A stretch of 64,000 nt of DNA, from assembly GCA_052390235.1 (NCBI GenBank), contig JBQTHB010000005.1, forward strand, positions 47,337-111,336. Direction: 5' to 3'. The notes beneath the pieces were generated by a model, which saw only the letters and a list, made by a program, of their open reading frames with translations, was not told where the DNA came from and did no database searches. Shown one piece after another: positions 3-40,667 of this stretch (positions are counted from its first letter, which is position 1; each line of letters opens with the position of its first letter). The DNA comes from Deltaproteobacteria bacterium (GTDB lineage: Bacteria; Desulfobacterota_D; UBA1144; Nemesobacterales; CSP1-2). Made by a program: the position numbers and the translations under genes.

Positions 3-1331
3 AACCAAACCGTGAGCTGTTTCGGTCCTGCCGCTCCCACGACAACGGGGGTTGTAAATAGGCTTCTTCCGGGGTCTCCCGTGGCTCAGGGCCCCACAAA
101 TCAAATCATTAACGGCTCGAACGGGGTTCAGGTGTTCGCGGGACTGCGCGAGGACCCGTTTGTTACCGACGCCTCGCAGCTCGTCTCCAGAATTATTGGA
201 GCTGGGGGAGTCGTGGCGAATCAGGACGTTGCCCGTGAGTTCACCTCGCCCGCGCTTGGATTCCTGCGCGGACGCCCAATTAGAGAGGATGGGACAAGCG
301 GCGTGGACACATTCGGCGGATTCAACGCAAGCTCGATTATCGTATCATTCCCGAAGAATTTAGTGCGCGGTCCCGGATTTTTCGGTATTCCCGGGCTAAT
401 TTCATTCTGGGGAACCGTTAACACCCCTGTTGCCGGCTCACCCGGAGATTTTACGCAGGTAGAGAGATTTGGACAGCAACTCGTAGCCACGGTATTCGTT
501 CCGGGCCCGATGCGAAACGCCTTTAACGCGGCAATACCGCAGAACGATATGGCGGCGTTCGGCAACCTAATCCCCGGCACCCTCACCACGACCGACAACG
601 ACGGCACGGGTAATACTATCGCTGGCAGAGCGGCTCTGCTCGACGCCGTAGGGGTTACGGCTCTTCCCAACGGCGCCCCGCTCCTCCTGCCCCCTTCGTT
701 TAATAACACAAACCCGAACCTTCTGAGGATTGCCCTGCTTCCAGATGTGGGAAGGCTCGACTTAGACCGCGCCCCAGAGGATTTTGCTATTGGAGCGTTT
801 GGGCTTCAGAACGGGCGCACCCCTCAGTTTGATGTTACGGACGTACTGCTGAGGCTTGCCAGACAGCTCGCCGATATTAAATTCCCGGACGGCGCTGGAG
901 TTCCGGGGAGCGGCCCGCTTGGAACTAGGGCGGCTCTGAACTGCTCAGATTTGGCTACGTTCCCGCAGTGTACGGATAGGAGAATATTAGCCGTGCTTCA
1001 GGGGACGGATTTTATTGAAGCCGACGATAGAGTGGCAGACGTATCCGACAGCGGGAACATTGTGGAGTTTCCGAGCGTTACAGGCGGAACAACGGCTCTA
1101 TTCGCCGAGACTGTGTTTCCGTTCTTCGGAGCGCCGAACGCTCTACCGGGAGATCTGGGAACGTCAAACTTCCCGCGCCAGACAAACGACGTGTTTGATG
1201 TTTTCATCAGCGATGGTGACGGATGCTCGCTTGCCGCATCGGGAAAGGGAAACATGAGCGGCATTGGGCTTATGCTACTTGCGCCGGTGGTTTATGTGTT
1301 TGTGAGAAGGCTTAGGAAAAAAAATAAATAA
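3..1331 (+). CDS. DUF4331-family secreted/surface protein with Cys-containing C-terminal sorting tail (5' end outside window)
   Basis: Frame is open from the window start and aligns with the 1465..3135 paralogue (FNQTVSC, FAGLREDPF, QVERFGQ, NGR). C-terminus is GDGCSLA + hydrophobic helix + RRLRKK. Confidence 0.8.
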   Translation, partial: NQTVSCFGPAAPTTTGVVNRLLPGSPVAQGPTNQIINGSNGVQVFAGLREDPFVTDASQLVSRIIGAGGVVANQDVAREFTSPALGFLRGRPIREDGTSGVDTFGGFNASSIIVSFPKNLVRGPGFFGIPGLISFWGTVNTPVAGSPGDFTQVERFGQQLVATVFVPGPMRNAFNAAIPQNDMAAFGNLIPGTLTTTDNDGTGNTIAGRAALLDAVGVTALPNGAPLLLPPSFNNTNPNLLRIALLPDVGRLDLDRAPEDFAIGAFGLQNGRTPQFDVTDVLLRLARQLADIKFPDGAGVPGSGPLGTRAALNCSDLATFPQCTDRRILAVLQGTDFIEADDRVADVSDSGNIVEFPSVTGGTTALFAETVFPFFGAPNALPGDLGTSNFPRQTNDVFDVFISDGDGCSLAASGKGNMSGIGLMLLAPVVYVFVRRLRKKNK

Positions 1332-1359
1332 TCCACGTATGTAATGGCTAGTTATCCAA

Positions 1360-1395
1360 ACAGGGCGACGAAAAACATCGCTCTGTCTTTTTTTT
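1360..1395 (+). terminator. Intrinsic terminator after first DUF4331 gene
   Basis: ACAGGGCGA...TCGCTCTGT stem followed by a T8 run. Confidence 0.6.
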
Positions 1396-1464
1396 ATGTT
1401 AATCTGCCGCCGCCAATCTATCGTATAGGTATATACAAAACATAACAAGAGGAGGGAAACACCA

Positions 1465-3135
1465 ATGAGTAGATATAAATTGCTCGGCTCGGCTCTAGCG
1501 ATTTTATTCGTCGCTTCAGTCAGCATATCAACGCTGTGGACTGCGTCGCCCGCGAACGCCGCAGACCACAGAGAGGCTCCAGTTATAAACTTTGAGCCGG
1601 CTTTAGACATTAACGATACATACGCATTTTTAAGCCCCGACGGGCAGAGACTCGTGCTAGCAAGCACTCTTAACCCGTTTTCAGTGCCTGCCGTAACCTC
1701 GACTTACGGCTTCAATAGACAGGCGCTCTATCAGTTTAAAATTGACAACAGCGGAGACGGCGTAGAGGACTTCGTAGTGCAGTGCGTTTTCAGCGGCGGC
1801 GCCGGGGCGTTTAACCAAACCGTGAGCTGTTACGGTCCTACCCCCCCCCCCACGACAGGGGCTATAAACCAGCTTCTCTCCGGCTCTCCGACGGCTCAGG
1901 GACCTGTGAATCAAATCATTAACGGCTCGAACGGGGTTCAGGTATTCGCGGGACTGCGGGATGACCCGTTTGTTACAGACGCCTCACAGCTCGTCTCCAA
2001 TATCCTAGGCTCAAGCAGCGCCCCAATTACCTCGGACGTTACCCGTGAATTCACCTCGCCGGCACTTGGGTTTCTGCGCGGACGCCCAATTAGAGAGGAC
2101 GGCAGAAGCGGCGTGGACACCTTCGGCGGATTCAATACAAGCACGATTATCGTATCATTCCCGAAGAATTTAGTGCGCGGTCCCGGATTTTTCGGTATTC
2201 CCGGGCTACTAGGGTTTTGGGGTACGGCAAGCAGGTCAATTCCCAACACGGCGAATTTCGTTCAAGTTGAGAGATTCGGACAGCAACTCGTTGCCACGGT
2301 TTTCGTCCCAAGCGCCATGAGAGATACATTCAACGCGGCAATACCGCAGAATGACATGGCGGCTTTTTCAAATTTAATTCCTGACGCGCTGACCACGACC
2401 GACAGCGACGGCACGGGCAACACCATCGCTGGCAGAGCGGCTCTGCTCGACGCCATAGGGGTTACGGCTCTTCCCAACGGCGCGCCCCTACTCCTGCCCC
2501 CTTCGTTTAACAACACAAACCCGAACCTTCTGAGGATTGCCCTGCTTCCAGATGTGGGAAGGCTCGACTTAGACCGCGCCCCAGAGGATTTTGCCATTGG
2601 AGCGTTTGGGCTTCAGAACGGGCGCATCCCTCAGTTTGATGTTACGGACGTATTGCTGAGGCTTGCCAGACAGCTTGCCGATGTCAAATTTCCGGACGGC
2701 GCTGGAGTTCCGGGGAGCGGCCCGCTTGGAACTAGGGCGGCTCTGAACTGCTCAGATTTGGCTACGTTCCCGCAGTGTACGGATAGGAGAGTGTTAGCCG
2801 TGCTTCAGGGGACGGATTTTATTGAAGCCGACGATAGAGTGGCAGACGTATCCAATAGCGGGAATGACGCGGAGTTTCCGAGCGTTACAGGCGGAACAAC
2901 GGCTCTATTTACCGAGACTGTGTTTCCGTTCTTCGGAGCGCCGAACCCGATACCGGGAGCGCCGGGAACGAGAAATTTCGCCCTCCAGACAAACGACGTG
3001 TTTGACGTTTTCATCAGCGATGGTGACGGATGCTCGCTTGCCGCATCGGGAAAGGGAAACATGAGCGGCGTGGCTTTGATGTTGCTCGCGCCGGTGGTCT
3101 ATGTGTTTGTGAGAAGGCTTAGGAAAAAAAGCTGA
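1465..3135 (+). CDS. DUF4331-family protein with signal peptide and Cys-type C-terminal sorting tail
   Basis: SD GAGGAGG; signal peptide ending ANA; ADHREAP and DINDTYAF motifs typical of DUF4331; C-terminal GCSL-TM-basic tail. Confidence 0.85.
   Translation: MSRYKLLGSALAILFVASVSISTLWTASPANAADHREAPVINFEPALDINDTYAFLSPDGQRLVLASTLNPFSVPAVTSTYGFNRQALYQFKIDNSGDGVEDFVVQCVFSGGAGAFNQTVSCYGPTPPPTTGAINQLLSGSPTAQGPVNQIINGSNGVQVFAGLRDDPFVTDASQLVSNILGSSSAPITSDVTREFTSPALGFLRGRPIREDGRSGVDTFGGFNTSTIIVSFPKNLVRGPGFFGIPGLLGFWGTASRSIPNTANFVQVERFGQQLVATVFVPSAMRDTFNAAIPQNDMAAFSNLIPDALTTTDSDGTGNTIAGRAALLDAIGVTALPNGAPLLLPPSFNNTNPNLLRIALLPDVGRLDLDRAPEDFAIGAFGLQNGRIPQFDVTDVLLRLARQLADVKFPDGAGVPGSGPLGTRAALNCSDLATFPQCTDRRVLAVLQGTDFIEADDRVADVSNSGNDAEFPSVTGGTTALFTETVFPFFGAPNPIPGAPGTRNFALQTNDVFDVFISDGDGCSLAASGKGNMSGVALMLLAPVVYVFVRRLRKKS
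1841..1851 (+). repeat. C11 homopolymer within coding region
   Basis: ccta CCCCCCCCCCC acg; absent from the homologous site in the upstream paralogue. Confidence 0.9.
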
Positions 3136-3171
3136 CCTTAGAAATTGACGAATAACTGAACCTCCTTCGGT

Positions 3172-3209
3172 GGGGGGGTATGGCGTTTCAGTCATTCCCC
3201 CCTTTTTTT
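3172..3209 (+). terminator. Intrinsic terminator
   Basis: GGGGGG.ATGGC...GTCAT.CCCCCC followed by T7. Confidence 0.75.
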
Positions 3210-3294
3210 ATTGTAACAATCCCCTCAGTACCCGATATTTCATCGCGCGAAATGGTATAATTTTCATAATCCATCCAATACAGGTCATGAGTAA

Positions 3295-4611
3295 TTGAAA
3301 AAACTAATCCTCGCCTCAGCCGTTCTTTGCGCCGCATTTACAATTGCCTGCTCCGAGTCCCCGTCTAAGAAGGAGGGCAACATCGAGACGAAATCCGATA
3401 TTTCAGCCCCGAAAACTGAGGAGACGAATATCGAGACGGACACTATTATTAAATTTTATCTGAACAGGATAAAAGTTGACCCAAACGACTACTTTAACTA
3501 CAACAAACTCGGCGAAGTGTATATCCAAAAAGCCAGAGAAACCGGAGATATATCCTACTACGACACCGCCGAGGCTTCGTTTAAAGAGGCTCTCGCGCTC
3601 TTTCCCGACAACTACTTTGCAAACGTCTATTTGGGGCAAATCAAAATATCCAAGCACGATTTCGCCGCCGCCCTCCCATTTGCCCGAAAATCCATAGAGT
3701 TAAAGCCTGAAGATAGCTACGGATACGGGATTCTGGGGGACGTTCATATTAACCTTGGGCAGTACGGCGAGGCTAAGGCGGCTTATGAGAAAATGGCGAG
3801 CATCCAGCAGAACTACAATTCGCTGATACGGCTCTCGCATATAAATGAGCTGTACGGCAGGGCGGATGAAGCCGTCCGATACATGAGCCAAGCCGCAGAA
3901 CAAGGGGCAATACAGGCTCTCACAAGAGAATACAGGGCGTGGGTGGAGTACGCGCTCGGGGAGCTTTATTTCAACTCAGGGCGGCTTAAAGAGGCCGAAG
4001 AGCGGTATAAATCCTCTCTGGCGATACAGCAGAGATATCATTACGCCCTCTCGGGGCTTGCCAAAGTGAGAGCCACCGAGGGAAATTACACAGAGGCTAT
4101 TGAGCTATATAAAGAGGCAATTGATGTCGTGCCGCTCCCCCTGTTTGCCGCCTCGCTGGGAGATGTGTATAAAAAATCCGGCAATGCGAACGAGGCGCAA
4201 AAGCAATATGACCTCGTCGAGTACATCGGGCTTCTGAGCAAAGTCAATGAGGTTCTCTACAACAGGGAGCTTGCCCTCTTTTACGCCGACCACGACATAA
4301 AACTGGATGAGGCGCTAAGCCTTGCCGAGAGGGAACTGGAAGCGAGACGGGACATCTACACCTACGACACGCTGGCTTGGGTTTTGTACAAAAATGGCAA
4401 ATTCAAAGAAGCCCTCTCGCACTCTAACGAAGCGCTGAAATTGGGCACTAAAGACGCCTCGCTGTATTTCCACGCCGGCATGATAAATCTGAGGCTCGGC
4501 AACGCGGCTGGAGCGCAGGAGCTTCTCAAGCGCGCCCTTGCCATTAATCCCCACTTTCATATCATCCACTCGGAAGAGGCAAAGAACGCCCTAAGAGAAC
4601 TTAGCAAATGA
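3295..4611 (+). CDS. Tetratricopeptide-repeat lipoprotein (DUF4331-associated type)
   Basis: Lipobox-like FTIAC, multiple TPR helices, DTLAWVLYKNG motif; extended -10 TGgTATAAT at 3253-3261. Confidence 0.85.
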   Translation: MKKLILASAVLCAAFTIACSESPSKKEGNIETKSDISAPKTEETNIETDTIIKFYLNRIKVDPNDYFNYNKLGEVYIQKARETGDISYYDTAEASFKEALALFPDNYFANVYLGQIKISKHDFAAALPFARKSIELKPEDSYGYGILGDVHINLGQYGEAKAAYEKMASIQQNYNSLIRLSHINELYGRADEAVRYMSQAAEQGAIQALTREYRAWVEYALGELYFNSGRLKEAEERYKSSLAIQQRYHYALSGLAKVRATEGNYTEAIELYKEAIDVVPLPLFAASLGDVYKKSGNANEAQKQYDLVEYIGLLSKVNEVLYNRELALFYADHDIKLDEALSLAERELEARRDIYTYDTLAWVLYKNGKFKEALSHSNEALKLGTKDASLYFHAGMINLRLGNAAGAQELLKRALAINPHFHIIHSEEAKNALRELSK

Positions 4612-4656: not shown

Positions 4657-6321
4657 CTATTTGCGTCTGAGTAAATCCTTAATGGACTTGTCCCCTTCGA
4701 TGCCGGCAAGCTCAGGGTCTCGTTTGTGATATATATGGCAGAGGCCGCAGTCAGTTTTCGCCAGAGCGTTGGTTTTAACGTTCGGATTATCGGCGTGGCA
4801 GGACTGGCAGGTCTGAATCGAGGGCATAATAACGTCCGTCGTCTCTTCGCTTGACCTAGCTTCGGCATGGCAAGAATCGCAGGTAAGCCCAAGGGTCTCG
4901 GAGTGCAGGGAGTGGTTAAAGACGCTGTGCGGAAGCCACCTTACCGGAATATTCGGCTCGACTAGCTGAGGCGTATTCGGCTCGGATTCGTCTATTGTGT
5001 GGCACTCGCGGCACTTTTTCATGACAAATAGGAGCTTCTCAGACTCCTCAACCCTCTGCGACACCCACTTGGCGGGACCCTTGGTTACGTCTCCGCCCAA
5101 TCCGAGCCTGCCCAGATTATTTATCGCGTACTCGGAATACGCCTTCCTCACGAAATCCCGCACCACGTCCATAGTCTCATGAGGGGCGGCGAGCTTTCCG
5201 AAGCGCGGGTCAAATTCGAGCGTGTGGCATCTCTTGCAGTCTCTTTCATATTCTATCGCAAGGACGTATTTCCCCTGCGCGTCCATCTGATGACAGCTCT
5301 CGCACCGGAGGGTTTCCGGGCCATCCGGGCCTCTTAAATCCGCCTCAAGATGGAGCTTGTGGTTGAGCTTAATCGGAGTGGTGTCAACGACGCCCTCTTC
5401 GTTTAGCCTCACTCTGACCATCTTTTTCTCGTCCTCGGGGGAATTCGTATCCCTGATGGGGCGCACCATAACGGCAAACTCAGGATGTCCCTTGGTGAAG
5501 GCATCAATCTGAGTCGCATAAGTCGTGGACGGGGTATCGCCCTCGACCTCAAGCTCGGCATGGCACTCAGTGCAGGAGGTATTGGTAATTTTAGATAATA
5601 GCGCCTCCCGCTGATGCTCAAAATGGCACTCGACGCAGTTTGGCGTGTAAGGCTCGTTCTGATTATGCGCAAGAGTGGCGCTGTGGCAGTCCATACAACT
5701 CTCGTCGGGAACTATGTCCCATGCGACGGTATGGCATCTGGCGCAGTCGTTATTAAACTGGCTATGAGCGTCGGAGACCTTCCCCGGCGAATACGGGGCT
5801 TTATCCTCCCCGAAAGTCCACATTCCAATCCACGCGCTGATAAGGACAATGCAAAGAACGCTGAGCTTGGATTTAGTGAAAAGCCCCTCGGAAATCCTAA
5901 ATTTAGAGACGTAGCGGATTTTTTCTTCTTTTTTCTTTTTGGACGGCTCTCCCTTGTCGGCTTGCTCCTCGTCGGTGTGGGTAATTAATAAGCCGGCTGG
6001 GTTTTCGGGCGAGGCGGGCAGGGAAAATTCAATTATATAGGAAGATATTTTTATCTTATCTCTATCCGAGAGCTGACCGCGGCCCGAGAGTGGCTTTTCA
6101 TTCACATAAGCCCCGTCGTCCCCCAAGATGTTTAACCAATAGACGCCGTCCGAGGCTCTCTCAATAAAGGCGTGCTTCGTAGCCACTCCCGGAGCGTCGA
6201 GCTGTATCTCGTTACCCGCTCCCGTTCCGATGTTGACCCTAGTTCCCGCCACCTGAGACCTGCGAGTCTCCTCCGCCGCCGCCTCGCTGATATAGCGCTT
6301 TATTATGATGTTAAATGACAT
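4657..6321 (-). CDS. FHA-domain, membrane-anchored decaheme cytochrome c (cytochrome c3-like)
   Basis: N-terminal FHA-like segment (IGTGAGNEIQL..VATKHA..GAYVN), one TM helix, 10 CxxCH motifs (CARCH, CMDCH, CVECH, CTECH, CESCH, CKRCH, CRECH, CDSCH, CQSCH, CGLCH). Start at 6321 chosen for the GGAG SD; the ORF extends to 6369. Confidence 0.85.
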   Translation of the reverse strand: MSFNIIIKRYISEAAAEETRRSQVAGTRVNIGTGAGNEIQLDAPGVATKHAFIERASDGVYWLNILGDDGAYVNEKPLSGRGQLSDRDKIKISSYIIEFSLPASPENPAGLLITHTDEEQADKGEPSKKKKEEKIRYVSKFRISEGLFTKSKLSVLCIVLISAWIGMWTFGEDKAPYSPGKVSDAHSQFNNDCARCHTVAWDIVPDESCMDCHSATLAHNQNEPYTPNCVECHFEHQREALLSKITNTSCTECHAELEVEGDTPSTTYATQIDAFTKGHPEFAVMVRPIRDTNSPEDEKKMVRVRLNEEGVVDTTPIKLNHKLHLEADLRGPDGPETLRCESCHQMDAQGKYVLAIEYERDCKRCHTLEFDPRFGKLAAPHETMDVVRDFVRKAYSEYAINNLGRLGLGGDVTKGPAKWVSQRVEESEKLLFVMKKCRECHTIDESEPNTPQLVEPNIPVRWLPHSVFNHSLHSETLGLTCDSCHAEARSSEETTDVIMPSIQTCQSCHADNPNVKTNALAKTDCGLCHIYHKRDPELAGIEGDKSIKDLLRRK

Positions 6322-6437
6322 GGCACTCTCGCTCTCCGAAGGGGTATTTAGCAACAAACGAGACATCACAGGGGGAAGTATTTAGCCCCCAAGCCGCCCG
6401 ACGAAAATCACTCTCTCTTCTAACCAGACAAACACGC

Positions 6438-7307
6438 TTAATCGGGTAAAAACATCCTATAGCTATTGTAGTAGAGCATGGAAACAATATGCGCCGTAAG
6501 GGCTATTAACATCGCAAACGAAACCGGCAGATGAATGTGAAGCCACGCCTCAAGCAGGTTTTTAATCCGCATCTGCGACACAAAACGCTTCTGAAGCTCG
6601 GCTTTTTGGAGATATGCCACGGCGAGGCGCTGATAGTCCTCCCTCTCGGCTTCAGGAATAGAGGTTAAGTCCTTCTGGAGCCGATTCATGTACTCGGATT
6701 CCGATATTCCGCTTTTGTATGAGCCGAAGACAAGCCCCCAGCCTGAGCGCCCCTTGGGTAGCCCGTAGGATATTGCCTCCTCGGCTTTTTGGGCGAAGAG
6801 CGCGGATTTACCCTTTGCCAGTGCCCTCATCTGCCCGATGAGCTTGTTGATTTCATCGTCGAATTTATCATATAAAAGCTCGCCCCCCTGCTTGGTGAAT
6901 CTTATCGGGAAATTGACATAGAAATAGCCGCCGAAAATCCCGCTTATGACCACCACAGCCATCAATGCAAATGCGAGCGTGTGAACATTTAAATCAAACT
7001 TGAACCCCGCGTGCATCGGAACAATCAGCAGGGTCAAAACCCCGATATAGATATGAAAGCTGAGCCACCCTTTGAGAGTTCCCACGTTTCCCACGTATTT
7101 GCGCTTTCTAATGCCGTAGTACATGAGGAGCAGTATCGCCGCCAGCCCCAGAATCCCGTACAGCAGTCCCATTGGCGTCGCCCCACTGGGGTTCGGCTCG
7201 TTTTGAGCGTACACAATGTAGGAGACAATTAGGACGATGAAGCTCAGAAACGTAATTTTAAACCAGAAGCTCCCATTATAGTTCAGTATATTTTCGTTTT
7301 CTCTCAT
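6438..7307 (-). CDS. Polytopic membrane protein with conserved His, probable heme-b (ferric-reductase-like) subunit
   Basis: About 5 TM helices; WLSFHIYIG, PMHAGF, WLHIHLP and TAHIV place His residues in or near TM segments. Confidence 0.65.
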   Translation of the reverse strand: MRENENILNYNGSFWFKITFLSFIVLIVSYIVYAQNEPNPSGATPMGLLYGILGLAAILLLMYYGIRKRKYVGNVGTLKGWLSFHIYIGVLTLLIVPMHAGFKFDLNVHTLAFALMAVVVISGIFGGYFYVNFPIRFTKQGGELLYDKFDDEINKLIGQMRALAKGKSALFAQKAEEAISYGLPKGRSGWGLVFGSYKSGISESEYMNRLQKDLTSIPEAEREDYQRLAVAYLQKAELQKRFVSQMRIKNLLEAWLHIHLPVSFAMLIALTAHIVSMLYYNSYRMFLPD

Positions 7308-7335
7308 CGTGGCGTCTCTCTAGGAACTTGGGAAT

Positions 7336-9744
7336 TTAGCTGAACTCTACTTTTTTGAAATAATCCGGCTTCACTCTAACCGCCGCGCTCGTAGGACAAT
7401 TTCTAACGCACGCCGGGCCCCCGTCAACCGTGTGGCAGAGATCGCATTTTACGGCAAGCCCCTTTTTTATTTTAGCCGCATGAGGCGCTTTTTTGCCCAC
7501 GAGCGAGCCTAGCGCTCCGACCGCCCCCTGCCATACGGACTTCATCAGCGTGGGCTTGTTCGTAACTGAAATCATAAAAATCACGCCGTAGGGACAGAAA
7601 CGCGAGCAATTTCCGCATCCAATGCACTTATCCTCGTCAATAGCCACAACCCCGTCCGCCCCGCGCACGATGGCGTCTCCCGGAGGGCAGTCCTGAAGAC
7701 ACGGAGCGCCTTCGCAGTGCCGGCAGGCAATTGGAACGTGAATGTTGCCGAAGCTCGGGCCGGGACGCCTGTCGAGCCTCGTATGCCCGCCGTGAGTCCC
7801 CTCGCAAGCCTTAACGCAGTTATCGCATCTAATGCACTTAGACTCGTCAATTATAAGCACATCGGTGCTTTCAACCACGCCGTATTTGATAAAATCAGCC
7901 ATCACTCCCGTATCGCCCGCGCTATGGGGGGACTGTAATATGGCGGATGTTTCAACCTTGCGCCTTCCCATCTCGGCTCTAACTCTGGATTCAAGCTGAG
8001 GGTGCTTTTGCATAAGCGCCTTAAAATCGGAGCTTAAAATGCGAATAGCCTCGGATTTGGTAGCCGCCGAAACGGTTGCCGTTCTAACGTGGTCTTCGCT
8101 GAGGAGGGCCGCCTCGCCGAAATAATTGCCCGTTGAAATATAGGTTATAACGTAGTCGCTTCCGTCTTTCGCCTTCTTGCTGATTTTCGCAGAGCCGAGC
8201 CGGATGACGTAAAAAGAGTCGGACACCTCTGCCTCTTTGCAGATAACGTCCCCCTTTTTATAGGCCACGACCTCGAGCTTAGGGGCTATGGTTTGAAATT
8301 CTTCGGCGCTTATGCTTATCGAAAGCGTTGATTGCAGGGTTCTGAGGATGAAAGCCTCGTCAATTATCCTCTTTACCGACTGCTCGGAGTTTATGAGTTT
8401 CAGCATTCTCCTGCGCGGGGTTTCAATTAAAATTGAATGCTCAGATGCCTTAACCGTAGCCGAGTTGCGGCGGTCGGCAAGGAGCCCCATCTCGCCGAAG
8501 AACTCGCCCTGCTTAATGAATATATCCCTCTCCGAGCCGCCTTTGGGAACGACCTGTACGCCTCCGGTTACGATGCTAAAGAAGTTGGTGGAATAATCGC
8601 CTTGTTTTAGAATAAGCTGGTCTTTTCTCGCCTGCGTAACGTCGGACTGAGTCATAAGCTCCCTGAGGAGCTGTCTCTGAATGCCGGTAAACATCGGCAC
8701 TCTGGCGGTTATGTAGTCGAGCTTTTCGTTGACCGATGCGCCGGGAATTAAGGCGAGTTTCTCTTTAAGCAGGGACTCGTCTATCGGCTCTACGGATTTC
8801 CCGGCGATGCTCTCTATAACTTCATACCCCTCGTTCATTGCGGTTTTGATGAGGTCTCGCCCGCCCGTCGCCCCTATGATATAAAGCCCCGGCACGTTGG
8901 TTTCGTACTTGTCGCTGATGATTGGCAGAGCGGTTACGTCCTTGGAACTGAAGGCGACGCCGCAGGATTCAAGAAATTTCCTTGGCACTTCGGCTCCGAT
9001 TTTTAGGATGACAATATCGCTTTTAATGCGCACTTCTCTGTCGGGGAGGGTTATCGTAGTTGCATCTGCTTCAAACAGCTCGACGGTTGCGCTGAGGTAT
9101 GCGGAAAGCTGTTTTGAGTCTATTTTTTCTCTTATCTTTCCGAGCAGGTCGGAGTTCATATAGAAAAAATCCGCCCCTTTCTCGACAATTGACACCTTGT
9201 TGTTATCCACAAGCGCAAGGACTACCTCCGCCGCGCTGTCGCCCCCGCCTACAACAACCACATGGCGGTCAGAATAAGCGGTCGGGTCAACCAAACGGTC
9301 TGATATGTGCGGGGAGTCTTCGCCGGGGGCGCCTACTTTTCTCGGATTGCCGAGCTTGCCTATGGCGAGAACGACTCTTTTAGCCTGATACACTCCTGAG
9401 GAGGTTTTTACCTCGAACAGGTCTCCTTTTTTTGCTACTGCCGATACGGATTCTTTAGTCTTGATTTTTAGGCTGTTCTTGGATGTGTAGCCGTTCCAGA
9501 CGTCGAGTATCTCTTCGCGGCTCCCCGCTTGGAAGGAAACGTCGCTCCTAAGCGGTATGGACTGGGGCTGAGCCATGACAAATTTCCCGTTCTGATAGTA
9601 GTAGTCCAGGGTATTGGCGACAGCGCCCTTTTCAAGCGCGATGTATTTTAATTTATTCGCCTCAGCCCTAGCGGCGGCGCTAATCCCTGCCGGTCCCGCC
9701 CCAACGATAATAACGTCAAATATGTCGCCGCCCGCGCTACCCAT
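7336..9744 (-). CDS. FAD/NAD(P)-binding oxidoreductase (TrxR/YpdA-like) fused to two cNMP-binding domains and a 4x[4Fe-4S] domain
   Basis: GAGPAG and GGGDSA Rossmann motifs; FGEMGLL..ATV and FGEAALL..RTATV cNMP cassettes; CIRCDNCVKAC, CRHC..PC..CP, CIGCGNCSRFCP, CDLC..PACVRNCP. Confidence 0.88.
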   Translation of the reverse strand: MGSAGGDIFDVIIVGAGPAGISAAARAEANKLKYIALEKGAVANTLDYYYQNGKFVMAQPQSIPLRSDVSFQAGSREEILDVWNGYTSKNSLKIKTKESVSAVAKKGDLFEVKTSSGVYQAKRVVLAIGKLGNPRKVGAPGEDSPHISDRLVDPTAYSDRHVVVVGGGDSAAEVVLALVDNNKVSIVEKGADFFYMNSDLLGKIREKIDSKQLSAYLSATVELFEADATTITLPDREVRIKSDIVILKIGAEVPRKFLESCGVAFSSKDVTALPIISDKYETNVPGLYIIGATGGRDLIKTAMNEGYEVIESIAGKSVEPIDESLLKEKLALIPGASVNEKLDYITARVPMFTGIQRQLLRELMTQSDVTQARKDQLILKQGDYSTNFFSIVTGGVQVVPKGGSERDIFIKQGEFFGEMGLLADRRNSATVKASEHSILIETPRRRMLKLINSEQSVKRIIDEAFILRTLQSTLSISISAEEFQTIAPKLEVVAYKKGDVICKEAEVSDSFYVIRLGSAKISKKAKDGSDYVITYISTGNYFGEAALLSEDHVRTATVSAATKSEAIRILSSDFKALMQKHPQLESRVRAEMGRRKVETSAILQSPHSAGDTGVMADFIKYGVVESTDVLIIDESKCIRCDNCVKACEGTHGGHTRLDRRPGPSFGNIHVPIACRHCEGAPCLQDCPPGDAIVRGADGVVAIDEDKCIGCGNCSRFCPYGVIFMISVTNKPTLMKSVWQGAVGALGSLVGKKAPHAAKIKKGLAVKCDLCHTVDGGPACVRNCPTSAAVRVKPDYFKKVEFS

Positions 9745-9852: not shown

Positions 9853-12549
9853 TTAAACTTCGGTGTCCGCGCTGTCCCTTCGCCACTCGTCAATTAGAGA
9901 CGCCACTAGAGCCGTCCAACCGGTCTGATGCGACGCCCCTATCCCAGAGCCGGTATCGCCGTGAAAGTACTCGAAAAACAGTATCAAATCCCTCCAATGG
10001 GGGTCGTCCTTAAATTTGGCGATGTTCCCATTGACCGGACGCCTGCCAGAATCGTCTTTTGTAAAAATGTTTATCATGCGGTTCGCAAGCCCAGATGCCA
10101 TTTCCTCGAACGTAGCCGCAATGCCTTCGGGATTTTCAATGGTAAAGTTCGTCCCGTAAGCGAGTTTGAGCTTTTTGAGGGCCTCAATCATCATAAATGA
10201 GGTGGGAAACCACACGGGCCCACGCCAGTTCGAGTTGCCGCCCTTGATCCTCTCGACCGACTCGGCTGGCTCATAGTGTATCTCCCTGCCCTCGAACACA
10301 AGCGGATGCCTCTCGTGATATTTCGACAGACTCCTGAGGCCGTAGTCCGATAGAAACTCGTCCGGATCCCATACCCTCTCCAAAAGACGCCGCATCTGCT
10401 TCGGATTCACCAGCGCAAGCATATGCACAAGCCCCTTCGCGCCGCCGTCAATCGAGCCGACGCACTCTTTAACTATGTCGCGCCTGTTTTTGAGAAACCA
10501 GTGGAAATTCGCATGGAAATTCGGGAACTGCTCTATCCACGCTTCCTCCAGATACTCAGTGGCGTAAAGCGGGATAAGCCCCACTAGCGAGCGTACCCTG
10601 AGTTTTTGATACCTGCCGTCGGGGTAGCAGAGCGCGTCGTAGAAAAACCCGTCGTTATCGCTCCACATCTCGTAGCCCCCGCCCATGTTCTGCATAGCCG
10701 CGCCCACATAGGCGTAGTGCTGAAAGAACTTCGTTGCAAGCCCCTCGTAGGACTTATTCTCCTGGGCGAGTTCCAGCGCTATGCGCATGAGATTTAGACA
10801 GAACATCCCCATCCAGCCCGTAGCGTCGGACTGTTGCAGCACAGCCCCTCCCGGTATCTCATGACTCCTGTCAATCAGCGTAATATTGTCGAGACCCAGA
10901 AAACCACCCTCGAAAATGTTATTGCCCGCGCTGTCCACTTTATTGACCCACCAGGCAAAATTAATCATGAGCTTATGGAAGCACCTCTCAAGAAACCCCC
11001 TGTCGGCTCTGCCCGATTTTTCGCGCTCGATGTTATAGACCCTCCACACCGCCCACGCCTGAACCGGGGGGTTTAAGTCGGAGAATTCCCATTCGTAAGC
11101 CGGAATCTGCCCGTTTATGTGCTGAAACTGCTCGAAAAGCAATATCCAAAGCTGCTCCTTTGCAAACTCCGGGTCAACAAGGGCAAACGGCACGCACTGG
11201 AAGGATAAATCCCAAGCGGCAAACCAGGGGTACTCCCACTTGTCGGGCATCGTCATAACGCGCATCGAGTCAATATGAGACCAGCGGGTATTGCGTATAT
11301 TGCGCCGCGACTCAGGGGGAGAGAACTTGGGGTCATCACCATCGATCCAAGCCTTCACGTTGAAATAGTAGAACTGCTTACTCCAAAGAAGACCGGAAAG
11401 GGCTTGGCGCTGAATTAATCGCTCCTCGTTGGTTGCTTTCGGCGGATGCACGGTGTTGTAGAATTCATCTGCCTCCGCGCGTCGAGCCTCGACTATCTTG
11501 TCCACATCCGCAAGGGGCTTTTTTAAGAGCTTGTCGCTGAGGCGAAGGCGCACTGTAACCGTCTCTCCTGCAGGAACCGTTATGGCGGAGTAGTGAAAGC
11601 AGGCTTTGGTTCCCCTTTTTCTCGGATTCGTGCAGTTCTCGCCGTCTATAACTTGGCGGTGAAAAGCGTCTTTAACGTAGGGTCTCCTGTTCTCAGCCCA
11701 CGCGCCGAGAGTGCGCTCGGCGTTGGTCTCGTTGTTGGTAAAGAGCAGAGCCGCGCCCTCGTCCCCGTAGAGATAGCGCTCCCCAAGGCGGTATTCAAAC
11801 GGGAGATTCTTCATAGTATCGGCAGGGCGGTCGTCGGCAAGGAGACTGATGAATCCCTTTCCCTCATGCCCTGGGGAAATCACCGGCTCAGGCTTCATCT
11901 CCTCGCCCCACGCCCAAGTGTTGCGAAACCACAGCTGTGGCAGAAGATGAACCGATGCCGCTTCGGGCCCCCGATTTGCCACTTGGATACGAATGCACAC
12001 GTCCTCCGGGTCAGCTTTTGCATACTCGACAAATACATCAAAGTAGCGGTCGTTGTTGAATACGCCCGTGTCAACCAGCTCGTACTCGGAATCTCGGGTG
12101 CTTTGCCGGCGGCGGTTCTCCTCAATTAGCTTCGTATAGGGGAACTCCGCGTGCGGATATTTATAGAGATACTTCATGTAGGAGTGCGTCGGCGTGGAGT
12201 CGAGATAGAAATAAAGCTCCTTTACGTCCTCCCCGTGATTAGCCTCCGAGGGCACAAGCCCAAATAGCCTCTCCTTTAATATCTTGTCATTCCCGTTCCA
12301 AAGGGCAAGCCCGAAAACGAGAACCTGATAGCGGTCGCAAATCCCAGCGAGACCGTCCTCGCCCCAGCGGTAGGCCTTCGAGCGGGCATAGTCGTGAGGG
12401 AAGTAATCCCATGCCGTCCCCCAAGGGCTATAGTCCTCTCTGACCGTTCCCCAAGCCCTCTCGGAGACATAGGGCCCCCATTTATACCAAGGAGGCACCC
12501 CCTTTACGTTCATATTTTCCGCCAAGCGCTTGTGTTCTTTAGTCTGCAT
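9853..12549 (-). CDS. GH63 / MGH1-like glucosidase (glycoside hydrolase)
   Basis: [63 protein letters not shown]. Confidence 0.88.
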
Positions 12550-13210
12550 TTTCTATGACCTTTAATAAATTAATCATGCCGCCGAAAGCCCCTTCTCTAT
12601 GCCCAAAAACCGACGTGCCTGCAACAAACACATCCGCCCCCGCGCGGTATGCCGAGAGGATAGTACGCTCGTCAATGCCGCCGTCCACCTCAAGCTCACA
12701 GGAGGGATTGCGCTCCTGAATCATAAGGCGCACCTTCTGAATTTTGCGAAGCGCGCCCTCAATAAACCGCTGTCCGCCGAAGCCGGGGTTGACCGTCATA
12801 ACGAGGGCGAGGTCTATCTGCTCGATAATCTCTTCGAGAACCGAGGCTGGCGTGGCAGGATTTATGGCAACTCCGGCTTTTTTGCCGAGGCGCTTTATGT
12901 GCTGAACCGTTCTGTGGAGGTGAGGGGAGTTTTCCTGATGAACGATAACGGTGTCCGAGCCGGATTCAATAAACGCCTCAATGTAGCGCTCCGGCTTTTC
13001 AATCATCAGATGACTTTCGAGCGGGATTGACGTCGCCCGGCGCATCGCCGCGACAACCGGCATCCCCATGCTTATATTCGGCACGAAGAACCCGTCCATA
13101 ACGTCAATTTGAAACCGGTCTGCTCCGCCGCGCTCGGCATCTTTGACCTGCTCGCCGAGCCTCAAAAAATCCGCCGCGAGTATTGACGGGGCTATTTTAA
13201 TTTTCGCCAT
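12539..13210 (-). CDS. rpe: Ribulose-phosphate 3-epimerase
   Basis: [34 protein letters not shown]. Confidence 0.96.
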
Positions 13211-13261
13211 TCGACTTTCCTTTTCTAATTAATTTTGCAAGAGCCGGACATTCAAATGGTA

Positions 13262-14017
13262 TTAGCCGCCGGAGAGCATCTGAGCCGCCGCCCTGTCAAC
13301 CATCCAAACGAGCCTCCCGCTAGTTGGGCGCACGACCTGCGAGGGGAAAACCTCAGGCCTGTACTCGCCCTCAAGCACAGATTTAAGAACCTGGGCTTTC
13401 TCCGCGCCCCCGGCAAGAAACACAACGTGCGAGGCGGCGTTAATGACGCGCGGGGTGAGCGTAATTCTATAGGCGCCGAATTTCTCCACCCAAGGGGACG
13501 CCACAAGGCGCGTGTTCTCAAAAATCGCATCAGTCCCCGGAAAAAGAGAGGCGGTATGCCCGTCGGGCCCCATGCCGAGGAGAACCAAATCAAACCGCAA
13601 TGCCTGTCCCTCGGAGAGATTAAAAAACCGGATGAGCTCGATTTCATACTCGTCGGCGACTCTTGCGGCGTCCGGATTTTCAGCCTTGATGCGGTGTATG
13701 TTCTCCTCAGGAATCGAAATTTTGGCGAGCATAGCCTCGTTTGCCATGCGAAAATTACTGTCGGCGTGATTCGGGGGAACGTGCCGCTCATCTCCCCAGA
13801 AGAAATGAATATCCTGCCACGGCGCTCTATCCCGAAGGGCATCGCCGGCAAGCAGGGCATAGAGGCTGCGAGGCGTAGAACCGCCGGAAAGGGCAACCGC
13901 AAACCTCCCCCGCGCCCTTACGGCTTCATTCGAGAGCGCTATAAACTCCGCCGCCGCGCGCCGGATAATCTCATCAGAATCTGCATAAACCCTGATTTCA
14001 GAGTTGGATTTGCTCAT
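13262..14017 (-). CDS. pgl: 6-phosphogluconolactonase
   Basis: ALSGGSTP, FWGDER.VPP, LLGMGPDGHTASLFP; alternative start at 14065. Confidence 0.95.
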   Translation of the reverse strand: MSKSNSEIRVYADSDEIIRRAAAEFIALSNEAVRARGRFAVALSGGSTPRSLYALLAGDALRDRAPWQDIHFFWGDERHVPPNHADSNFRMANEAMLAKISIPEENIHRIKAENPDAARVADEYEIELIRFFNLSEGQALRFDLVLLGMGPDGHTASLFPGTDAIFENTRLVASPWVEKFGAYRITLTPRVINAASHVVFLAGGAEKAQVLKSVLEGEYRPEVFPSQVVRPTSGRLVWMVDRAAAQMLSGG

Positions 14018-14054
14018 TGTCTCATCAAGTACAATCAACGCGGGAGTTTGCGGC

Positions 14055-14972
14055 TTACCCGCCATAAATTTTCATTATCTTATCGAGAAATTCGAGGGCG
14101 TGAGAATGTTCTCGCTGAAACGCGTTTCTGCCCATGATGGAGCCGAAGCCGCCTCCGTCCCTTACGGCGCGGATTTCATCAAATACGGACTCGTCGTCTT
14201 CCTTGAGCGCGCCGCCTGAGAATATCACAATCCTCCTGCCGTCAAAGCAGGATTGCACCACGTGGCGCACCCTTTCGGTGAGCGTTGCAACCGGCACTTT
14301 TGCCGACTCATAGACCTTGCGCGCCGCATCCTGCTCGATGTGAGCCGCCGGGAGTTTCACCTTTATAATATGCGCGCCCAGCTGAGCGGCAATGTGAGCG
14401 GCATAGGCGGTTACGTCAATCGCGGTCTCCCCGTTTTTAGACAACCCTGAGCCGCGCGGATAGGACCAAATTATTACGGCAAGTCCCTTTGCCTTTGCCT
14501 CTTCAGCGTAGGCGCGTATCTGCCCGTACATCTCTAGGCGGTGCGACGAGCCGGGGTAAATTGTAAAGCCAATGCCTACGCATCCGAGTCTTACGGCGTC
14601 GCCAACGCTCCCTGTAAGCGCCTGATAGGGGTCGCTTTCGTCAATTAACACGTCGTGGTCGTTGACCTTTAGGATGAGCGGAATTTCTCCCGCAAAATCG
14701 CGCGCTCCGGCCTCGAGAAATCCGAGCGGGGCGGCGTAGGCGTTGCATCCGGCGTCAATCGCGAGCTGGAAATGATAGTGCGGATTGTAAGACGGCGGAT
14801 TCTTGGCGAAACTTCGAGCGGGCCCATGCTCAAAGCCCTGGTCAACCGGCAGAATCACCATCTTGCCCGTGCCTTTTAACTTCCCGTGGTTCAGCATACG
14901 CGCCAAATTAGTCAGCGTGCCGGGGTTATCGCTTCCGTACCAGCTTAAGATTTCTCGCACTCTTGGAGTCAT
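14055..14972 (-). CDS. fbaB: Class I fructose-bisphosphate aldolase (DhnA type)
   Basis: ILPVDQGFEHGP, WSYPRG, IIKVK, FSGG, GRNAFQR. Confidence 0.93.
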   Translation of the reverse strand: MTPRVREILSWYGSDNPGTLTNLARMLNHGKLKGTGKMVILPVDQGFEHGPARSFAKNPPSYNPHYHFQLAIDAGCNAYAAPLGFLEAGARDFAGEIPLILKVNDHDVLIDESDPYQALTGSVGDAVRLGCVGIGFTIYPGSSHRLEMYGQIRAYAEEAKAKGLAVIIWSYPRGSGLSKNGETAIDVTAYAAHIAAQLGAHIIKVKLPAAHIEQDAARKVYESAKVPVATLTERVRHVVQSCFDGRRIVIFSGGALKEDDESVFDEIRAVRDGGGFGSIMGRNAFQREHSHALEFLDKIMKIYGG

Positions 14973-15009
14973 GGCGTCCTCTCTCCTATGGATTTAGTCT
15001 TAAAATTTT

Positions 15010-16005
15010 TCATTCCCTCATAAACCTCTCGTAAAGTTCGACCTCTTCGGCGCTTCCTATGATGAGCGGGACGCGCTGATGAATAGACTCGGCTTTGATG
15101 TCGAGTATTCGCTCCGTGCCTGTGGTTGCCCGCCCTCCCGCCTGCTCGGCTAAAAATGCAAGTGGGGCGCACTCGTAGAGGAGTCTGAGCTTTCCGTCTT
15201 TGTGTTTTGTGTCCGGCGGATAGATATAGATTCCGCCCTCGAGGAGACTGCGGTGGAAGTCCGCGACCAAAGCCCCGGCGTAGCGGAGCGAATAGGGACG
15301 GCGGGTTGCGGCGTCGCGCTGGGTGAGATATTCGATGAATTTCTGCACGCCCGGATGCCAGTCATGGTAGTTGCCGAGATTGCCGCTGTAGTAATGCCCG
15401 TGAGCGGGGCATTGAATGTTCTCGTGAGAGAGTAGAAAATCCCCGATGTCGTGGTCTAGGGTGAACCCGTTTACGCCGCTTCCCGCGGTATAAACCAGCG
15501 CGGCGCTTGGCCCGTACATGACGTAGCCGGCGGCTACCTGCTCCGAGCCTCTCCTAAGCAAGTCCTCGGTTGTCTCTTGGTCGCCTGAGGTGATGCGGCG
15601 GTAAATTCCAAATATCGTGCCTACCGCGCCGTTTATATCCGTGTTGGAAGAGCCGTCGAGGGGGTCAACGCACAGAACGTATTTTGCCTCCCGTCCTCCT
15701 GAGACGCGCTTGGGCTCGTCTAATTCTTCCGACACAATCGCCGCGACGAGACCCGTTTCAGCGAACGCCTCAACAACGGTCTCATTGCCGAAAATATCCA
15801 ACTTTTTCTGCGAATCTCCGGTTACGTTCTTCTCCCCGCTGAGACCGAGCCTGCCCACTAAAGCCGCTCTGCGCATCTCCCGCGCGAGAATTTTTCCCGC
15901 ATAAGCAACTTGATTCAGCAGCACGGCAAGCTCTGCGGCGTCTTCCCGATGACCGTGTTCATAGCTCAAAATAAACCTTGAAAGTGATACAGCCTTTGCG
16001 CTCAA
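15010..16005 (-). CDS. fbp: Class 1 fructose-1,6-bisphosphatase
   Basis: SEE, DPLDGSSN, RYAGALVAD, GKLRLLYE. Confidence 0.95.
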   Translation of the reverse strand: MSAKAVSLSRFILSYEHGHREDAAELAVLLNQVAYAGKILAREMRRAALVGRLGLSGEKNVTGDSQKKLDIFGNETVVEAFAETGLVAAIVSEELDEPKRVSGGREAKYVLCVDPLDGSSNTDINGAVGTIFGIYRRITSGDQETTEDLLRRGSEQVAAGYVMYGPSAALVYTAGSGVNGFTLDHDIGDFLLSHENIQCPAHGHYYSGNLGNYHDWHPGVQKFIEYLTQRDAATRRPYSLRYAGALVADFHRSLLEGGIYIYPPDTKHKDGKLRLLYECAPLAFLAEQAGGRATTGTERILDIKAESIHQRVPLIIGSAEEVELYERFMRE

Positions 16006-17000: not shown

Positions 17001-17001
17001 T

Positions 17002-18537: not shown

Positions 18538-18592
18538 TTTTGCACCCTTTTTTATGCGGCTTGAAATAATTTAAGTCAGCAACAATCTGCCA

Positions 18593-19579: not shown

Positions 19580-19638
19580 TTCTGTATAACCTCCTTTTAT
19601 TGTCGTCGTTTAAGTAGTTTTTACTCTAAATCCCAAAA

Positions 19639-22500: not shown

Positions 22501-22970
22501 TCACCTCTTAAGTATTTGTTTTCAATCGCTTTAACCTTATTAAGCCGCCTTGCGTGGCGCTCCTCGCCCGTGAACTCCGCCTCGGCGAAGGAGCGGACAA
22601 TCTCACGCGCCACCTCCTGCCCTACTATCCTCGCCCCCAAGCAAAGCACATTCATATCGTCGTGCTCAACCCCCTGATGCGCCGAATAGTGGTCGTGGCA
22701 GAGCCCCGCCCTGATGCCGGGGAATTTATTTGCCGCAACCGTAACCCCCACTCCACTCCCGCAGATAACGACTGCGCGCTCGGCTTCTCCCCGCCTAATC
22801 GCCTCGCAGGCGACTTCGGCAAAGTCGGGGTAGTCGTCGGGCTTGGCGGGGTCGTTCGTGCCGAGGTCGGACACCGTATGCCCAGCTTTTATTAAATCCT
22901 CAATTATGATGCTTTTAAGCGGATACCCCGCATGGTCGCCGGCAACTACTATTCGCATTATGTTTGACAC
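22497..22970 (-). CDS. rpiB: Ribose-5-phosphate isomerase B
   Basis: DHAG, CGSGVG, ANK, HDDMNVLCLG. Confidence 0.95.
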   Translation of the reverse strand: MSNIMRIVVAGDHAGYPLKSIIIEDLIKAGHTVSDLGTNDPAKPDDYPDFAEVACEAIRRGEAERAVVICGSGVGVTVAANKFPGIRAGLCHDHYSAHQGVEHDDMNVLCLGARIVGQEVAREIVRSFAEAEFTGEERHARRLNKVKAIENKYLRGE

Positions 22971-23058
22971 CTTCCAGTGAGAGAGTTTCCCAGCTCGGCA
23001 GCGCCATGCCCCCCATAATTCGCCGCCGCCTCAACGAAATGCCCATATCGGCATGAAA

Positions 23059-38449: not shown

Positions 38450-38475
38450 AAATTGGCAAAAACAATACTGACCCG

Positions 38476-40649: not shown

Positions 40650-40667
40650 TTCTCCTTCTTAAATCAT

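Follow-up and report, generated by a model that had tools for sequence, protein, structure and literature searches.

A 64,000-nucleotide stretch of a Deltaproteobacteria bacterium genome (GenBank assembly GCA_052390235.1, contig JBQTHB010000005.1, positions 47,337 to 111,336; hereafter the window) carries three consecutive genes, here termed g1, g2 and g3, that respectively encode a cytoplasmic protein combining a flavin adenine dinucleotide (FAD) domain, two cyclic nucleoside monophosphate (cNMP)-binding domains and a four-cluster ferredoxin domain; a membrane protein with invariant histidine pairs; and a protein with an N-terminal FHA domain, a single transmembrane (TM) helix and a decaheme cytochrome c. 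Judged by gene order and by natural gene fusions, the trio is a real and widespread functional unit, and it is the inner-membrane part of a larger, envelope-spanning gene set. We favor, with moderate confidence, the reading that the three proteins form the inner-membrane core of a conserved system that would export electrons from NAD(P)H under cNMP regulation and independently of quinones. Within this reading we infer the physical assembly of the trio, the heme b, the outward direction of flow, the gating by cNMP and the terminal acceptor. To our knowledge, the bacterial electron-export routes known so far begin at the quinone pool. A widespread module fed by NAD(P)H and equipped with cNMP sensor domains would couple metabolism to the outside in a different way, which would be relevant to bioelectrochemistry, to redox balancing and to the reduction of metals and humic substances.

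A recurrent gene trio and its natural fusions

An earlier reading made from the sequence alone (the sequence-only reading) had described three co-oriented genes at this place, and the list of open reading frames (ORFs) agrees with it exactly in the limits of all three, which lie on the minus strand (Table 1). Transcription runs in the order g1, g2, g3, with intergenic gaps of 28 and 68 nt, and the 108-nt gap 5' of g1 holds a hairpin resembling a terminator and a weak match to a promoter, both at consensus level only. Such gaps and weak promoter and terminator matches give only consensus-level evidence for one transcript, which is the point in favor of regarding the three genes as unrelated neighbors that form no functional unit. 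Their order has nevertheless been kept across phyla, and both a g2-cytochrome and a g1-g2 fusion occur, which leaves that explanation scarcely credible.

The recurrence of the trio in other genomes, which the sequence-only reading had expected, is borne out. A scan of species-representative genomes gave 575 stretches that encode a g1 relative, of which the best 80 loci were kept. Order and strand of g1-g2-g3 are retained in 57 of the 65 loci from other genomes that have at least 2800 nt 3' of g1; where 1000-2800 nt are available downstream, g2 is present in seven of eight. In every g3 that does not run off a contig, the CxxCH motifs number exactly 10. By record title the carriers include Nitrospirota, Alpha-, Beta- and Gammaproteobacteria, Bdellovibrionales and others, and g1 relatives at E <= 0.001 numbered 2103 among the 8000 candidates examined. 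Genes of about 780 residues that lie 3' of g1 in three betaproteobacterial loci were set aside: their products are DUF5916/CBM9-like, hence neither g2 nor g3.

Within the window's own phylum the distribution is patchy. The g2 profile matches 11 of 120 genomes, in three of which g2 is a free-standing gene of about 290 codons and in eight the N-terminal module of ORFs of 666-820 residues. Four of the five loci examined among the window's relatives (L108-L111; genomes G011, G002, G004 and G029) have a two-gene short form. Its first gene encodes about 490 residues with two cNMP domains and a four-cluster ferredoxin, without the flavodomain, and its second encodes 692-813 residues in which the g2 module is followed by five CxxCH motifs in a pentaheme c554/NrfB-like domain. 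All four of these g2-pentaheme fusions keep the four g2 histidines considered below, and their first CxxCH stands about 10 residues past the last TM helix. Because the fused CxxCH motifs begin right after that helix, the C-terminus of g2 is placed on the periplasmic side. A fusion of the second kind, represented by one 1110-residue protein (P0221), joins a full g1 to g2 with the four histidines kept; as a single case it could be a gene-calling artefact.

Table 1. Coordinates of the trio, its domains and the tail of the convergent operon, numbered from the first nucleotide of the window
Feature	Position	Strand	Description	Basis or remark
g1	7336-9744	-	802 aa, cytoplasmic flavo-iron-sulfur protein with two cNMP domains	ORF list, profiles, alignments
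g1 flavodomain, residues 9-306	8827-9720	-	two-dinucleotide-binding FAD/NAD(P)H domain, YpdA/TrxR-like	
g1 cNMP domain A, residues about 355-470 (limits approximate)	8335-8682	-	cNMP-binding domain	Pfam, alignment
g1 cNMP domain B, residues about 475-600	7945-8322	-	cNMP-binding domain	best Pfam stretch 493-581
g1 ferredoxin domain, residues 628-796	7357-7863	-	HycB/HydN/NrfC-like, 16 Cys	
g2	6438-7307	-	289 aa, five-TM membrane protein, putative di-heme-b subunit	ORF list, alignment, AF2 model
g3	4657-6369	-	570 aa as listed; FHA domain, one TM helix, decaheme cytochrome c	
g3 FHA domain, residues 46-108	6046-6234	-	FHA domain	PF00498 36.6 bits, cut-off 20.7
g3 single TM helix, residues about 169-187	5809-5865	-	TM helix	read from translation
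g3 periplasmic domain, residues 202-548	4726-5766	-	10 CxxCH and 10 further invariant His	
Operon tail	3-4611	+	DUF4331 3-1331 (3' part of a 558-aa gene), DUF4331 1465-3135, TPR lipoprotein 3295-4611	role in system unproven

Domains of the trio proteins and their envelope partners

The architecture proposed for g1 in the sequence-only reading, a TrxR/YpdA-like FAD domain without CxxC joined to two cNMP domains and a four-cluster iron-sulfur domain, was confirmed by Pfam and NCBIfam searches and by alignments of two sets of 18 and 46 full-length homologs. The protein has no signal peptide and carries a GxGxxG Rossmann motif at its beginning. Its flavodomain matches PF13738 (Pyr_redox_3; 155 bits at residues 12-291) and PF07992 (91 bits), and a PDB profile search with residues 4-294 returned YpdA/Bdr (7a7b, E 1.6e-38) and ferredoxin-NADP reductase (3ab1, E 2.2e-20). 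The best NCBIfam match is YpdA (TIGR04018), at 162.8 bits below the cut-off of 339.9, and thioredoxin reductase (TIGR01292) reaches 62.7 bits against a cut-off of 343. For the CxxC of TrxR, no Cys is found in residues 124-141 of the window's g1, and position 139 is Val in 34 of the 46 family sequences and Cys in only four. YpdA has a conserved Cys in its first GxGxxG loop; in the corresponding first glycine loop of g1 (GxGP-x-G), position 19 is Gly in 25, Ala in 18 and Ser in 2 of the 46. The protein thus falls outside both the YpdA/Bdr and the TrxR families, and because it has neither a CxxC nor a glycine-loop Cys, it looks like an electron-transferring flavodomain rather than a disulfide reductase.

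Two stretches of g1 match PF00027 (cNMP_binding; 122.3 bits, cut-off 27.5), and a PDB profile search places the tandem nearest to the tandem cyclic-nucleotide-binding domains of PKG/PKA-R (E 2e-51). The phosphate-binding cassette of CAP and PKA has the form Gly-Glu...Arg-(Ser/Thr)-Ala. In domain B this cassette is intact (G543-E544...R554-T-A556), with G543, E544 and R554 present in 46 of 46 sequences; domain A of the window copy has G417-E418 and R425-R426. In the ferredoxin domain, the cysteines at positions 637/640/643/647, 674/677/682/686, 707/710/713/717 and 767/770/779/783 are invariant in all 18 and all 46 aligned sequences, and these 16 residues, in four CxxCxxCxxxC-like groups, would fit four [4Fe-4S] clusters. 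A match to PF13247 (Fer4_11; 39.1 bits, cut-off 26.2) assigns the domain to the four-cluster ferredoxins, among which no single NCBIfam equivalog scores above its cut-off; its nearest PDB relatives are HycB3 (7qv7, E 2.4e-27) and HycB (7z0s, E 2e-25).

The membrane protein g2 has five TM helices and a helical insert of about 110 residues, cytoplasmic by a positive-inside reading. In its AlphaFold2 (AF2) model (predicted local distance difference test score, pLDDT, 90.4) the third helix spans residues 78-99 and the long last helix residues 219-284, with a His pair on the membrane part of the latter. The sequence-only reading had counted about five histidines in or near the TM helices; their location holds, and their number is six (H85, H99, H109, H257, H259 and H273). 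Of these, H85, H99, H259 and H273 are shared by all 57 aligned g2 sequences, H109 is nearly invariant, and the four invariant residues form two pairs of the same spacing, H-x13-H, with H85/H99 on TM3 and H259/H273 on TM5. The RKRK loop and the helical insert (about residues 132-250) would be cytoplasmic, from which it follows that H85/H259 would lie near the inner face of the membrane and H99/H273 near the outer face. Four invariant histidines on two TM helices, reaching both faces, are the pattern expected for the two stacked b hemes that g2 would hold. VIA-align matched the g2 model to generic helical bundles only, among them the TorS sensor (Z 9.7), a designed two-heme protein (Z 8.4) and cytochrome b561 (4o6y, Z 8.0), with all scores falling below the level that the tool gives as noise for helical proteins. 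Clusters of g2 type in the ESM Atlas bear the automatic name 'ferric reductase like', without Pfam support; the like-named label in the ptd preprint considered below is of this automatic kind too. The g2 profile matches 4757 representative clusters (50% identity) at E <= 0.001 and 2841 at E <= 1e-10, so that g2 stands for a large family of membrane proteins with invariant His pairs, for which there is neither a Pfam model nor a solved relative.

For g3, Pfam, alignment and translation uphold the N-terminal FHA domain, single TM helix and 10 CxxCH motifs of the sequence-only reading. The true start is probably the ATG at 6321 (Met17), which would give a protein of 554 residues, because a purine-rich ribosome-binding stretch, GGAGAGCGAGAG, precedes it and the conserved first Met of the homologs (column M19) is at most two residues away. 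The protein has no N-terminal signal peptide. Its FHA domain is related to those of GarA/OdhI in the PDB (E about 1e-9), and its cytochrome domain matches PF14522 (55.6 bits) and has as its closest PDB relative 3ov0, a Geobacter c7-type multiheme 'cytochrome c family protein' (E 6e-16). In the alignment, 10 further invariant histidines accompany the 10 CxxCH motifs, as expected for bis-His hemes. The genome holds CcmC/CcmF-like cytochrome c maturation genes (contig C7), and a profile search of it did not find ResB (PF05140). Together, the CxxCH motifs, the candidate distal histidines and the maturation genes place g3 among the multiheme cytochromes c. A CcsB-like gene also lies in the window at 33544-34362 (167.8 bits, below the cut-off of 187.6).

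Additional electron-transfer candidates are encoded by a plus-strand operon that is convergent with the trio and starts outside the window (C5:37204 onward on the same contig). The sequence-only reading missed these periplasmic and outer-membrane partner genes just upstream of the window, and the trio by itself is the inner-membrane part. The operon encodes, in order, an HbpS-like lipoprotein (612 residues), a 774-residue protein, a 1305-residue LVIVD-repeat decaheme cytochrome, a 479-residue c554-like tetraheme cytochrome, two DUF4331 paralogs and a TPR lipoprotein; the envelope partner genes all lie within about 20 kb of the trio. The 774-residue protein has a signal peptide, and its C-terminal 470 residues are modeled as a beta-barrel with pLDDT mostly 85-96 there (66.8 for the whole model, in which the first 300 or so residues are unresolved). 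The barrel is closest to AlgE (Foldseek E 1.5e-14, TM-score 0.68 on the target), and 32 of 34 relatives end in an aromatic residue. In the 80 loci kept, an HbpS-like gene stands beside the trio in 43, a barrel gene in 37, an LVIVD decaheme gene in 37 and a tetraheme gene in 18. Homologs of the DUF4331 and TPR genes were found in none of 80 other trio loci.

The proposed electron path, its direction and its control

In the mechanism that we favor, NAD(P)H would be oxidized at the FAD of g1, and the electrons would travel along its four [4Fe-4S] clusters to g2, which would move them across the membrane through two stacked b hemes, one held toward the cytoplasm by H85/H259 and the other toward the periplasm by H99/H273. 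From there the electrons would run through the periplasm along the ten c hemes of g3 and, in this genome, onward to the tetraheme cytochrome, the LVIVD decaheme and the AlgE-like outer-membrane barrel. Such a route would bypass the quinone pool and dissipate membrane potential, and this dissipation would supply a reason for allosteric control by tandem cNMP domains set between the flavin and iron-sulfur parts. A trans-envelope wire is supported by the topology, by the envelope partners and by the succession of cofactors, namely FAD, then four [4Fe-4S] clusters, a putative pair of b hemes and finally ten c hemes. The wire from cytoplasm to periplasm was already the idea of the sequence-only reading, and it now draws support from the placement of CxxCH motifs directly behind the last TM helix in the fusions and from the H-x13-H pairs on two helices.

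The direction of flow is argued from energetics. With a potential of about -320 mV, NAD(P)H donates electrons readily, and an electron that moves outward goes with the membrane potential. Outward flow would be preferred because flow from NAD(P)H is downhill, whereas inward flow would call for a donor in the periplasm with a potential far more negative than -320 mV. A bolder version of the same reading, which we put forward tentatively and consider doubtful as a whole, is a second-messenger-gated 'electron valve' built from the trio and its envelope partners, NOX-like in its logic and independent of quinones, in which low-potential electrons from NAD(P)H would pass through FAD, four Fe-S clusters and a new di-heme-b family and reach the cell surface over some 24 c hemes. 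If it is true, ubiquinone-type aerobes and small-genome bacteria could reduce extracellular acceptors beyond the reach of quinol. Export from NAD(P)H as such is open to direct test, since by record title the carriers include cultured strains of Alcanivorax, Tahibacter, Pseudomarimonas, Oceanibacterium and Cognaticolwellia. Structure prediction of a complex of g1 residues 600-802 and g3 residues 17-205 with g2 and two hemes gave scores of 0.62, 0.61 and 0.58; controls with a replaced partner scored 0.00 and 0.00, and the control with chain 1 replaced scored 0.44, which makes the score not specific, and it is used neither for nor against binding.

The putative b hemes also bear on whether the quinone pool is truly bypassed. 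Membrane di-heme b partners of four-cluster ferredoxins usually react with quinones, as in FdnI, HybB and the NrfD-type systems, and g2 could by this analogy be a quinone-reactive cytochrome b, such that g1 and g2 would make up an NAD(P)H:quinone reductase, or g2 and g3 a quinol:cytochrome c dehydrogenase like CymA, CbcL or ImcH. For a related cluster, a preprint on Ferrigenium likewise proposes that the cytochrome or the TM protein is linked to quinone (bioRxiv 10.64898/2026.01.22.701106). On the other side, Pfam, Foldseek, VIA-align, PDB profile and hhalign comparisons gave no homology of g2 to any quinone-reactive b cytochrome, and histidines on two helices that span both faces, together with a c-heme domain fused to the last TM helix, fit transfer through the membrane. 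We consider this quinone-coupled arrangement unlikely.

A reversal of the whole path would have the decaheme take up electrons from donors outside the cell or in the periplasm, for instance Fe(II) oxidases or cathodes, with g2 and g1 passing them to NAD(P)+ or a ferredoxin-like carrier. The occurrence of the cluster in lithoautotrophs speaks for it: a cluster with a 'forkhead-associated protein' cytochrome of 10 CXXCH motifs is reported from 27 Gallionellaceae genomes (PMC10734462), a related nonaheme FHA cluster is present in Ferrigenium (bioRxiv 10.64898/2026.01.22.701106), and g1 homologs with g2 and g3 occur in Nitrospirota. Uptake in this direction would, on bioenergetic grounds, work against the membrane potential, with NAD(P)+ (about -320 mV) far below the Fe(II) or nitrite couples, and many carriers are by record title aerobic heterotrophs, such as Alcanivorax, Tahibacter, Pseudomarimonas and SAR116. 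We therefore rate inward flow as quite improbable.

The signaling-type domains present in both redox subunits invite a different role, in which the cytochrome and b-heme module would report the redox state of the periplasm and the cNMP and FHA domains would relay the signal. HbpS-like proteins are known from a redox-sensing system, and an HbpS-like gene, recognized by Pfam name only, lies nearby. Searches with Pfam and NCBIfam found no output domain in the trio, be it kinase, DNA-binding or cyclase; ten hemes, four clusters and a flavin exceed the usual load of a sensor; and the trio goes together with an outer-membrane barrel and a further decaheme. A sensor is for these reasons a highly unlikely account of the trio.

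Several observations weigh against NAD(P)H-driven export itself. The g2 protein belongs to no Pfam family, its top match being PF01292 (b561/Ni_hydr_CYTB) at 17.3 bits against a cut-off of 30.1; an NCBIfam search gave no match, a PDB profile search nothing meaningful, and a Foldseek comparison of its model with the PDB no match at E <= 0.001. With hhalign, the probability was 0.65% for E. coli MsrQ, a weak test that used a single template, and 0.13% for E. coli YodB. The four invariant histidines could, moreover, serve another metal. Eight of the 65 loci have no g2 or g3 within 8 kb of g1, even by profile search, and in four of these eight, all betaproteobacterial (L057, L068, L073 and L094), g1 comes directly after HbpS-like, barrel, LVIVD-decaheme and tetraheme genes. 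The window copy itself departs from its family at several places: K189 and Y195 of g1 stand where Arg occurs in 44 and 45 of 46 homologs, likely the Arg pair for the NADPH phosphate; N427 in cNMP domain A, the sole Asn, replaces a phosphate-binding Arg found in 45 of 46; and T49 of g3 replaces the Gly-Arg arginine of the FHA domain, the only sequence to do so. By these departures at K189/Y195, N427 and T49, the window copy may be regulated differently or work less well. Neither a cyclase nor a Ser/Thr kinase adjoins the trio in this genome, and no experimental work on any trio member was found in the literature searched, subscription journals being outside its reach. Finally, the authors of the Ferrigenium preprint favor inward uptake from Fe(II) oxidases (bioRxiv 10.64898/2026.01.22.701106).

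The claim of the sequence-only reading that two signaling inputs are built into the redox subunits is weakened by the degenerate FHA domain, by the loss of the domain A Arg in the window copy, where the cassette of cNMP domain B is intact, and by the absence of an adjoining cyclase or kinase gene. An FHA domain contacts phosphothreonine through the Arg of Gly-Arg, the Ser of Ser-x-x-His and an Asn. The family keeps Gly-Arg (Arg in 55 of 56 sequences), the His (50 of 56) and Asn-Gly, and the position of the canonical phosphate-binding Ser is Ala in 37 of 56; the window copy, besides T49, has A63 for this Ser and N90-E91. Judged by these residues, the window's FHA domain would not be a phosphothreonine reader. 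Because the phosphothreonine-binding positions are degenerate, its most likely role is phospho-independent docking at the cytoplasmic face, rather than kinase control.

The sequence-only reading had also suggested a search for nearby cyclases or kinases. The genome encodes four class III cyclases and one Ser/Thr kinase, all away from the trio; a CHASE2-adenylate/guanylate cyclase gene lies within 8 kb of the trio in 8 of 80 other loci, in six of them upstream on the same strand. In those eight loci the CHASE2-cyclase is a possible source of cNMP for the trio, as suggested by its proximity. In three loci (L030, L062 and L089) a gene for a FecR-domain protein stands between the CHASE2-cyclase and g1 on the same strand, and in two of these a gene for a TPR/Slam-like protein stands there as well.

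Relation to known systems and genomic surroundings

The sequence-only reading had presented the trio as an undescribed system. This does not stand, because the cluster is described as uncharacterized in two preprints (bioRxiv 10.1101/2023.11.21.568154 and 10.64898/2026.01.22.701106). The first describes a ptdABCDEFG cluster, reported in Alpha- and Gammaproteobacteria, Nitrospirales and Planctomycetes, in which PtdE, PtdF and PtdG are a cNMP-binding 4Fe-4S protein, a 'ferric reductase-like' TM protein and a periplasmic decaheme, beside a tetraheme (bioRxiv 10.1101/2023.11.21.568154). The order of cNMP/4Fe-4S protein, TM protein and decaheme is the same as here, matched by description only. The flavoprotein PtdC is separate and PtdE has two clusters, whereas the window has a single 802-residue g1 with 16 Cys; ptd has a pentaheme (PtdA) and a porin (PtdB) in place of the LVIVD decaheme, AlgE-like barrel and HbpS-like lipoprotein found here; and the accessible portion of its description makes no mention of the FHA domain that g3 has. 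In one locus of our set (L084) a pentaheme and a tetraheme gene lie upstream of the trio, much as described for ptd.

The second preprint reports an 'NHC' cluster of Ferrigenium straubiae, expressed under all conditions tested, with a cytoplasmic-side FHA domain on a single-TM multiheme cytochrome, a five-TM protein without InterPro match and a [4Fe-4S] protein (bioRxiv 10.64898/2026.01.22.701106). That cytochrome has nine hemes, where g3 has ten; flow inward to quinone is favored for it, and the text available mentions neither a cNMP nor a flavin domain. While the kind of system is thus already described, the geometry of the invariant g2 histidines, the two kinds of natural fusion, the degenerate FHA domain, the convergent envelope operon and the Arg departures of the window copy are new here.

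More distant likenesses are to systems that share parts of the proposed logic. In the NADPH oxidase/ferric reductase/MsrQ group (NOX/FRE/MsrQ), a nicotinamide-linked flavin feeds two stacked b hemes held by His pairs of two helices, with the acceptor outside, which is the same export logic as that proposed for the trio. However, g2 has no match to PF01794 and five TM helices instead of six, and the flavodomain of that group is of FNR type, whereas here it is of TrxR/YpdA type and is followed by four Fe-S clusters and ten c hemes. The Hmc/Tmc/Qrc/DsrMKJOP complexes and CymA/CbcL/ImcH resemble the trio in combining outside multiheme cytochromes c, a b- or NrfD-type membrane subunit and an Fe-S protein; they exchange electrons with quinones or with DsrC/Hdr-type cytoplasmic chemistry. 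NCBIfam matches to such subunits are far below cut-off (QrcA 38 against 180 bits, HmcA 25.5 against 400, DsrO 59.9 against 200), and we know of none of these systems that contains a flavodomain for NAD(P)H or a domain of the cNMP or FHA type. With MtrCAB the shared features are an outer-membrane barrel gene beside decaheme genes and an inner-membrane entry module. The input proposed here is NAD(P)H, not quinol, the barrel model is near the 18-strand AlgE/OccD barrels (Occ porins), not MtrB, and g3 scores 17.3 bits against the OmcA/MtrC NCBIfam model (cut-off 209), which gives no sign of homology. The Tenderiales uet cluster, which combines LVIVD and multiheme proteins, was considered and set aside as a different system.

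Upstream of g1 and co-directional with the trio, the minus strand at 12539-25083 of the window carries tkt, a fused tal-pgi, gnd, zwf, glk, fbp, a class I fba, pgl and rpe. This oxidative pentose-phosphate and glycolytic string would be a source of NADPH beside an NAD(P)H-type flavoprotein. A gene for a GH63/MGH1-like glycoside hydrolase (9853-12549) adjoins the trio upstream, on the strand of g1. A GH63-like gene also adjoins the trio, on its downstream side, in a Nitrospirales metagenome-assembled genome (L018 8663-11371); the two GH63-like proteins are 68% identical and the two g1 proteins 46%, and GH63 homologs occur in two of the 80 loci.

In the tail of the convergent operon, the two DUF4331 paralogs (C5:46991-48667, equal to L099 192-1868, and window 1465-3135) stand in tandem and are 84% identical, with identical first 39 residues. 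Both proteins carry a signal peptide, and in both a C-terminal hydrophobic helix is followed by a basic tail, which resembles a sorting signal; the TPR lipoprotein encoded 3' of the pair weakly resembles PEP-CTERM PrsT. Farther along, the window encodes an RND efflux pump, the adaptor of this pump and an outer-membrane factor of NodT/TolC type (43908-49763); these, together with the outer-membrane barrel of the cluster, led us to reject a monoderm host. The window also holds a polyhydroxyalkanoate set (37376-41493), composed of a class III PhaC, an acetoacetyl-CoA/3-oxoacyl reductase, PhaR and an enoyl-CoA hydratase, and a gene for a 720-residue protein with weak matches to dynamin-like GTPases (61178-63340).

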